From sequence record NC_054933.1: a stretch of DNA of 64,000 nucleotides; one strand, given 5' to 3'. A program made the translations under genes and the position numbers. Shown here piece by piece: positions 37,061-38,514 of this stretch. This DNA is from Escherichia phage teqhad. The first letter of the stretch is position 1. The number at the start of each line of letters is the position of its first letter. The notes under the pieces are model-generated. The model searched no databases. It had not been told where the DNA came from and saw only the letters and a list, made by a program, of their open reading frames with translations.

Positions 37061-37534
37061 TTATTTGAACGATTTAACGTACTGAATAGAACCTTTACTA
37101 TTTACAAAGGCAATTTTACCATTTTTATTATACATGGTAGCAGTACGTTGATAACCATAAGTTTGTTTACCAGATTGATAACCAACTAATGCGAAATTAT
37201 CTTCGCCCATTTTATTCTGTTTAGCGCGAATGCGTTCATGACCATGTGCCATAAGAACCTTAGCATCACCGGTTGCAATGGATCTACGAGTTTTTTCATC
37301 TTCAACTGTATTAACAAAGTCGTCAAATGAATCAAATTTAGCATGAGATTTATTATACAGTTTTCCATCTACTGCATAATTATATCCCTGTACATCCATC
37401 TCAACTTCTGTACCATCATCCAATACAGCAGTGATTTTTTGACCTTTTTTAAATTTCAAAAGATCAGTAAAAGATTCAGCAATAATTTGAGAATTAATAG
37501 CTGCTTCAGTGATAAATTCTTGATATGTTTTCAT
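37061..37534 (-). CDS. internal head protein (IP) with capsid-targeting sequence
   Basis: 157 aa; N-terminus MKTYQEFITEA is the T4-type CTS cleaved by prohead protease. Confidence 0.75.
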   Translation of the reverse strand: MKTYQEFITEAAINSQIIAESFTDLLKFKKGQKITAVLDDGTEVEMDVQGYNYAVDGKLYNKSHAKFDSFDDFVNTVEDEKTRRSIATGDAKVLMAHGHERIRAKQNKMGEDNFALVGYQSGKQTYGYQRTATMYNKNGKIAFVNSKGSIQYVKSFK

Positions 37535-37543
37535 ATGTTTCCT

Positions 37544-37960
37544 TTAAATGTAAATATTTTTACCGTAATACTTATACCAATGTGGTTTCATTAAAATTTT
37601 TTCATCAAGTCGTTGTTGACTCAATTTAATAGCTGATTTGCATGGATTATAATCATTTTTCCATTCTACTGGAATATCGCTGATGTCAGGAACTTCAGTA
37701 TCTTTTATACTGAACCCTCGTTTTAAGCATTCCGTTATAATGTCTAATTGACGCTTTCGCAAAAATTCTAACTTATCGTAAAAGAACGTAACATGGCCAG
37801 AACCTAAAATAAACTCGGAAGATATTTTAAAATCTTTAACGCGCTTACCATTTGCCACATGCTTACGAACTATACCAAAAACACGTGGCAATTCACGATA
37901 TTCTGCAATTAAATGCTGATCAGTAAGTTCAGATACTAAAGTCAAATTAATACGAGTCAT
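37544..37960 (-). CDS. denV: endonuclease V (pyrimidine-dimer DNA glycosylase)
   Basis: 138 aa; [12 protein letters not shown]...[10 protein letters not shown]...; diverged from T4 denV. Confidence 0.88.
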
Positions 37961-38019
37961 TTTATCCCTCCAAATAACTGTGAATATACTATCACAATTC
38001 TAGGAGAAAGTAAACAACT

Positions 38020-38514
38020 TTATAGATTTTTATACGCGTCCCAAGTTCCAGTTCTAAACGTTGCAATGACTCGTTTTGCGCGATTAGGTGTTTGATTATA
38101 CCATCTACTTTTAGCTAAGTTAACTGCTGCTTCATCCCAGCGTTTTTGTTGAAGCATACGCAAAGAGTTAGTGAATCCAGCTACGCCAGTTTCTCCCATT
38201 TGGAAAACCATATTAATTAATGCACAACGACGAACAGCATCAAGAGAATCATAAACTGGTTTTAATTTAGCATTTCTCAAAATTCCACGAACAGCAGCAT
38301 CAACATCCTGATTAAAGAGTTTTTCAGCCTCATCTTTTGTAATTACACCATTGCAATTACGCCCAATAGCTTTATCTAATTCAGATTTAGCAACACTTAG
38401 TGATGGACTTTTAGTAAGCAAATGACCAATGCCAATAGTGTAATAGCCTTCTGTGTCTTTATAGATTTTAAGTCTAAGACCTTCATCTATACGTAACATT
38501 TCAAATATATTCAT
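38020..38514 (-). CDS. e: lysozyme (endolysin)
   Basis: 164 aa, [39 protein letters not shown]...; differs from T4 lysozyme at about 3 positions. Confidence 0.97.

Follow-up and report, generated by a model that had tools for sequence, protein, structure and literature searches.

The internal-protein (ip) locus beside the lysozyme gene of Escherichia phage teqhad differs from that of phage T4 by replacement of a small cassette and not by transposition of T4 genes, since the denV that it carries is a different allele (77% amino acid identity to T4 denV, against 97% for the neighboring gene e). The whole stretch analyzed, hereafter the window (64,000 nucleotides of record NC_054933.1, to which all coordinates refer unless T4 is named), is an AT-rich (about 34% GC) Tequatrovirus (T4-like) genome that is collinear with the T4 genome between 34 and 49 kb, where its genes lie on the minus strand, and the locus is the known hypervariable ip slot between vs.8 and e. 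The reading favored here, to which we give a probability of roughly 85%, is that this slot is filled by varying small cassettes and that the internal proteins encoded in them serve as injected cargo. The slot and its flanks comprise the following features:

36380-36967, minus strand: vs.8 homolog, 92% amino acid identity to T4 vs.8, the conserved left flank
37061-37534, minus strand: ip4, 157 aa, internal-protein precursor (Ip4, DUF7412)
37475-37534, minus strand: ip4 codons 1-20, with the CTS MKTYQEFITE and the candidate gp21 sites ITE↓A (after E10) and IAE↓S (after E20)
37503-37562, minus strand: module of leader, Shine-Dalgarno (SD) sequence and CTS codons, overlapping the last denV codons
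37544-37960, minus strand: denV (endonuclease V, pyrimidine-dimer glycosylase), non-T4 allele, Pfam Pyr_excise 9.9e-14
37961-38019, minus strand: spacer between e and denV with an early-type promoter read from the sequence (GTTTAC 38015-38010, 18 nt, TAGTAT 37991-37986)
38020-38514, minus strand: e (T4 lysozyme), 97% amino acid identity to T4 e, the conserved right flank

Read in the sense of transcription, the minus strand carries e, a 59-bp spacer, denV, the 157-aa ip4 (whose product starts MKTYQEFITEA) and the vs.8 homolog, in this order. Nine bases separate denV from ip4, and the spacer between e and denV holds no ORF, only the early-type promoter. The ORFs confirm what the initial annotation had described, a single internal-protein gene beside denV and no gene between denV and lysozyme, and the T4 order that it gave (denV, ipII, ipIII, e) agrees with the T4 record, where the genes are annotated in the same orientation as vs.8, denV, ipII, ipIII and e. 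It had placed ip4 upstream of denV; the gene in fact lies downstream (3') in the direction of transcription. Its description of the locus as rearranged relative to T4 is correct in that the locus differs from T4, but the difference is a cassette replacement. A simple transposition of T4 genes was considered and rejected, because the window has another allele of denV and its ip4 bears no relation to ipII or ipIII.

The limits of the replacement were mapped by local BLASTN against T4. Collinearity at 96.8% nucleotide identity runs up to window position 37061, which is the last base of the ip4 stop codon and corresponds to the T4 position just after the denV stop codon, and it resumes at 37971, just 3' of e. 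Hence 909 bp (37062-37970, with ip4 and denV) replace 1511 bp of T4 (64943-66453, with denV, ipII and ipIII), and the breakpoints are a stop codon on one side and a shared early promoter on the other. The same early promoter element is found before ipIII and again before ipII in T4 and before denV in the window, where the spacer also carries a small palindrome (GAATTGTGA/TCACA). Inside the replaced segment the only similar pieces are denV itself (77% nucleotide identity) and a 60-nt island at 37503-37562, whose identity to the 5' ends of T4 ipII and ipIII is 95% and 94%, respectively. The product of the window denV is 97.8% identical to those of phages phiD1 and fFiEco06; as it shares 77% of its residues with T4 denV while e and vs.8 share 97% and 92% with their T4 counterparts, two distinct denV alleles circulate in the genus. 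T2 and T6 have no denV at the vs.8-e locus.

A trace of the same kind of junction is present in T4. The non-coding leader of T4 ipII (65719-65749 of the T4 record, to be compared with window 37535-37562) holds AAAAATATTTACATTTAA verbatim, which corresponds to the last five to six codons (K N I Y I) plus stop with which the window-type denV ends; in both, AAGGAAACAT-ATG comes next. Since this end of the window-type denV is kept verbatim there, whereas T4's own denV ends differently, the ipII leader looks like the fossil of a denV-to-ip junction such as that of the window, with ipII once located behind a window-type denV. Regarding expression, ip4 and ip6 (described below) each lie close to an early-type promoter and lack an exact late promoter belonging to them. 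For ip4 the nearest exact late promoters (TATAAATA) are the two upstream of e (38528-38535 and 38541-38548), so that its late expression would depend on read-through, a point against the favored reading.

The arrangement found in the window is common. A 1001-bp query containing the ip4-denV-e segment (window 37040-38040), counted at a coverage of at least 80%, gave a contiguous, single-piece match in 163 phage records at 93-99.5% identity, against 33 records for the denV-ipII-ipIII block of T4 at the same coverage. The ip4-denV-e order is thus about five times commoner among deposited genomes than that of T4, so that T4 is in the minority and the window holds one of the frequent variants; the unusualness that the initial annotation had implied does not hold, Ip4 and Ip6 being named proteins already. 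Other relatives fill the slot in other ways: T2 has vs.8, ip4 and e with no denV, Yersinia phage PST has vs.8, ipIV, ipIII and e, and fFiEco06 has vs.8, denV and e with no ip gene. In T6 (AP018814.1, 60489-61506) regB adjoins e and the whole vs.3-vs.8/denV/ip block is missing; this block is present in T4, T2 and the window. Over the whole 12.5-kb region of 36.0-48.5 kb no deposited genome matched the window at 99% identity or more, the best identities lying in the 95-99% band, so that this particular set of cassettes is a mosaic of the kind customary in the genus.

Ip4 is a known protein. It matches Pfam DUF7412 (PF24183) at 5.7e-96 over residues 1-157 of 158 and phrog_3155 ("internal virion protein") at 6e-102, it is 100% identical to proteins of T2 (annotated Ip4/IpIV), RB18, RB33, PST and phiD1, and it has matches in 469 records, 289 of them at 99% identity or more. 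There is no difference at the protein level between the T2 and window copies; they differ in position, as ip4 abuts e in T2, which has no denV, whereas in the window, phiD1 and 162 other records denV lies between the two. The family shows 64 invariant positions across homologs at 61-82% identity, and M1, K2, F7, E10 and E20 are invariant across 14 of its members. ITE↓A and IAE↓S are the only [LIVM]xE[ASG] sites in Ip4, and E20 falls opposite the known ITE↓A site of T4 IPI in a weak hhalign match (65% probability, 47 N-terminal columns), which suggests that the Ip4 propeptide may be 20 residues long. This match was not accepted as homology of the mature proteins, for it is confined to 47 N-terminal columns, and is taken as a hint on propeptide length only. 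The predicted mature Ip4 is basic (pI 9.1-9.3).

A six-frame scan of the whole 64 kb with the pattern M[KR][ST][YF]..F[ILV].E gave exactly three matches, each at the start of an ORF (37534, 43068 and 46820). A fourth ORF, at 30971, appeared in a looser scan and was rejected as not being a CTS, having no L/I-x-E site. The three N-termini are MKTYQEFITE (Ip4), MKSYTQFLNE (an unnamed protein here called IPx) and MKTYQEFIAE (Ip6). All of them keep Y4, F7, I/L8 and E10 followed by Ala, so that the targeting determinants, an aromatic residue 4 and Phe 7, are present along with a gp21-type site, (L/I)-x-E plus a small residue, at positions 8-11 (ITE↓A, LNE↓A and IAE↓A). Sites of the form (L/I/V/M)xE(A/S/G) occur in the N-terminal part only. 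In BLASTP comparisons with T4 IPI, IPII and IPIII the similarity was essentially limited to the first 10-20 residues, the other alignments being weak (27-29% over 69-98 aa, E 1e-5 to 5e-3). The three CTS proteins with non-T4 sequences that had been proposed were therefore recovered, and neither BLASTP nor gene order revealed close orthologs of IPI, IPII and IPIII in the canonical order. The three proteins resemble T4 IPI*, IPII and IPIII in the CTS, the gp21 motif, the small size, the location in non-essential hypervariable loci and the leader/SD module, and mature Ip4 and IPx are basic like the T4 proteins while Ip6 is near-neutral; unlike these shared traits, the mature parts have no detectable similarity to the T4 proteins, except for the weak N-terminal match of Ip4 to IPI.

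The second of the two classical ip loci, that of T4 ipI, carries these features in the window:

46587-46820, minus strand: ip6, 77-aa internal-protein precursor (MKTYQEFIAE↓A), at the T4 ipI position
46857-46886, minus strand: early-type promoter upstream of ip6 (GTTTAC, 18 nt, TACTAT), read from the sequence

Ip6 matches phrog_8111 ("internal virion protein") at 1.8e-50 over its full length (residues 1-77 of 77). The initial annotation rightly recognized a CTS protein here and gave it the coordinates 46587-46838; however, the start is more likely to be the ATG at 46820 (77 aa), with GGAG 8 nt upstream and in agreement with 77-aa homologs in other phages, than the GTG at 46838 (83 aa). The gene replaces T4 73553-73856, homology resuming within the CTS codons at 46799, and its promoter aligns with the region upstream of T4 ipI. 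It occupies the same slot, between 57B and trna.4, as the Ip6 (IpVI) of T6-type phages, to which it is related by the full-length family match, although the window protein shares no more than 77-86% of its residues with the VR20, VR25, fHoEco02 and PST copies, which are annotated ip6 or ipVI, and 77-79% with the T6 copy; 13 records are at least 99% identical to it. Mature Ip6 has a predicted pI of 6.8.

The third CTS gene lies between e.8 and the stable-RNA/tRNA cluster, in a cassette made up of a late promoter, the gene and a terminator:

42560-42587, minus strand: second copy of the AGCCCCAGCCGAAAGGTTGGGGCT hairpin, immediately downstream of IPx
42595-43068, minus strand: IPx, unnamed 157-aa candidate internal protein that starts MKSYTQFLNE↓AVLNE↓A
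43105-43112, minus strand: exact T4 late promoter TATAAATA, 36 nt upstream of the IPx start codon
43115-43142, minus strand: terminator-like hairpin (AGCCCCAGCCGAAAGGTTGGGGCT plus a T run) after the stable-RNA/tRNA cluster, the upstream copy of the repeat

IPx belongs to phrog_2280 ("unknown function"), is RB32ORF132c-like (the name used in RB51), has no Pfam match and is present in 510 phage records, from Tequatrovirus and related genomes; in a 40-row sample of them none carries an internal-protein annotation, every row with annotation being hypothetical or unannotated. A full-library profile search returned 13 cluster representatives, which look like members of the same phage family, and no link to a known family. 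The protein has two tandem LNE↓A sites, after residues 10 and 15, and none internally, and its predicted mature form is basic (pI 9.4-9.6). Relatives that are distant, or that have a different C-terminal half, keep the N-terminal pattern (MLKFNEFLAEG, MINFSDFLNEGA and MKSFSSFLNEGA). With respect to T4 the cassette is an insertion: T4 has one copy of the hairpin and no gene, so the cassette may have been gained or lost through recombination between the repeats, and the two flanks of IPx align with one and the same stretch of T4 (70825-70859). The direct repeat that brackets IPx and its late promoter is about 35 bp long.

Several differences from T4 were observed in the neighborhood of these genes. 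The tRNA cluster (43459-44406) has 10 genes (Arg, His, Asn, Tyr, Met-CAU, Thr, Ser, Pro, Gly and Leu) against 8 in T4, with His, Asn and Tyr extra and Gln missing, and T4 tRNA-Ile sits in the slot of the window gene called Met(CAU). Upstream of tRNA-Leu, at about the position of T4 tRNA-Gln, a 210-aa ORF (44413-45045, minus strand) has an HNH-like motif (HIDGNNKNH...CPNCH); it is annotated as "HNH endonuclease" in phiD1 and has no Pfam match at 1e-3. No segB counterpart is annotated in phiD1, the closest annotated relative. At the e.2 position an ORF of 162 aa (38989-39477, minus strand; "membrane protein" in phiD1) corresponds to a T4 gene annotated at 102 aa in collinear DNA, and the T4 copy may be truncated or annotated differently. 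Additionally, a 94-aa protein from a 2.9-kb assembled contig combines an N-terminal region like trna.3 (PF26894) with roughly the last 32 residues of IPx, and is either a natural recombinant of neighboring cassettes or an assembly chimera.

Studies of the T4 internal proteins led to a detailed picture of their fate. For IPIII, an N-terminal segment of 10 residues is enough for packaging into the prohead core; CTS positions 4 and 7 control targeting and positions 8 and 10 control cleavage by gp21, and each T4 head contains some 360-370 copies of every IP, which it ejects into the cell (PMC9026906). Ip1, Ip2 and Ip3 of T4 each block a different GmrSD type IV enzyme, with no cross-protection (Silas et al. 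2025, PMC12373910), in line with the earlier statement about the window that internal proteins include injected anti-restriction factors; IPIII works in the host cytoplasm without its CTS (PMC9391042), and "at least 10" further Ips have been reported (PMC12373910). By analogy with these proteins, the N-terminal 10 residues of Ip4, Ip6 and IPx, with aromatic residue 4 and Phe 7, would bind the scaffolding core so that the precursor is built into the prohead, and the gp21 protease would cut after (L/I)-x-E, which means E10 in Ip4, perhaps with a second cut at E20, and either E10 or E15 in IPx. The mature proteins would stay in the head with the DNA, enter the host together with it and most likely bind and block a host defense that attacks incoming glucosyl-hmC DNA, as T4 Ip1, Ip2 and Ip3 do. 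From this comparison we infer packaging, cleavage, injection and anti-defense activity for the three proteins, whose most likely role is that of injected, target-specific anti-defense cargo. In contrast to T4 Ip1, Ip2 and Ip3, which inhibit GmrSD, ip4-ip10 did not reproducibly inhibit the GmrSD variants on which they were tried (PMC12373910, Supplementary Fig. 9), so that an anti-GmrSD role of Ip4 and Ip6 is unproven and their target may be another defense. No sequences for those ip4-10 constructs turned up in the published supplementary files, and IPx is apparently not among the ip genes tested there against GmrSD. A search for literature on "RB32ORF132c" and for virion proteomics of Ip4, Ip6 and IPx found none.

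Three other explanations were weighed. That faulty assembly or scaffolding of the window produced the non-T4 order is vanishingly improbable, since no point in its favor was found, ip4-denV-e is contiguous in 163 genomes that were deposited independently and match at 93-99.5% identity, and the flanks are collinear with T4 to the base; an artefact is effectively excluded. It is also improbable, though far less so, that the CTS proteins are mainly structural or physical parts of the head, basic counterions for the DNA or aids to the scaffold, and not specific anti-defense factors, their sequence diversity then reflecting weak constraint and not an arms race. The basic character of mature Ip4 and IPx (pI 9.1-9.6) agrees with such a role, as do the reduced head assembly and burst size of T4 IPIII mutants, the contacts of IP lysines with DNA phosphates (PMC9026906, PMC3012670), the failure of ip4-10 to inhibit GmrSD reproducibly and the fact that no enzymatic or known inhibitor fold was found. 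On the other hand, all three thoroughly tested T4 IPs are specific restriction inhibitors, the conservation of Ip4 (64 invariant positions, 289 records at 99% or more) is unlike what weak constraint predicts, and Ip6, with its pI of 6.8, is therefore not a counterion. Moreover, fFiEco06 and T6 have no ip gene in the vs.8-e slot, from which it follows that ip genes are not needed for building the head.

For IPx the choice is less clear. It is tentatively proposed that it represents an unrecognized family of packaged and injected internal proteins, encoded at a third ip locus and directed against a defense other than the GmrSD enzymes blocked by Ip1, Ip2 and Ip3; this is a serious possibility, held with less than even confidence. 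Alternatively, IPx would not be an internal head protein at all but a late cytoplasmic or otherwise non-packaged accessory protein whose N-terminus is CTS-like by resemblance, which we judge unlikely. In keeping with this alternative, no internal-protein annotation occurs among the phage records sampled, PHROG 2280 is of "unknown function" and there is no Pfam match, the gene lies outside the two classical ip loci, and its CTS departs from MKTYQEFIAE at positions 3, 5, 6 and 9. However, the experimentally important positions 4, 7, 8 and 10 are all kept, the pattern persists in the distant members already listed, an exact late promoter lies 36 nt upstream, sites of the gp21 type occur only at residues 8-11 and 13-16, and the mature protein is basic. 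The want of an annotation is likewise answered by the distribution of the gene, which is absent from the corresponding loci of T4, T2 and T6, and this would explain why classical work left it unnamed.

Returning to the cassette model, the window slot is composed of an early promoter, a non-T4 denV allele and ip4, that of T4 of promoter-ipIII, promoter-ipII and its own denV, and those of other relatives of ip4 alone, ip4 plus ipIII, or denV alone. Recombination between short stretches of shared sequence is the most likely route by which the cassettes are exchanged, and the candidate points are the early promoter just 3' of e, the leader/SD/CTS module at the 5' end of each ip gene and the bases that follow the final stop codon. 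On this model the same holds for ip6 at the T4 ipI position and for the IPx cassette bracketed by the duplicated terminator hairpin. According to later papers that summarize Repoila et al. (1994, EMBO J 13:4181), alternative genes that share only a leader and the CTS swap at fixed slots in the ip loci of T-even phages (PMC3012670, PMC12373910), and the breakpoints of the window fit this polymorphism as it is summarized there; the IPx cassette may lie outside the 1994 survey, as far as these summaries describe it.

The ip4-denV-e arrangement, Ip4 and Ip6 are therefore already known and belong to the ordinary biology of Tequatrovirus; only the candidacy of IPx as an internal protein seems not to have been catalogued. 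Host immunity encounters internal proteins before any other phage protein, and every one so far characterized blocks a single subtype of type IV restriction enzyme, so that the set of ip cassettes in a genome is a practical predictor of host range, for instance in phage therapy. The window carries a common set, Ip4, Ip6 and IPx with no Ip1, Ip2 or Ip3, and introduces no new principle, while IPx is a widespread candidate that the classical work on T2, T4 and T6 would miss.
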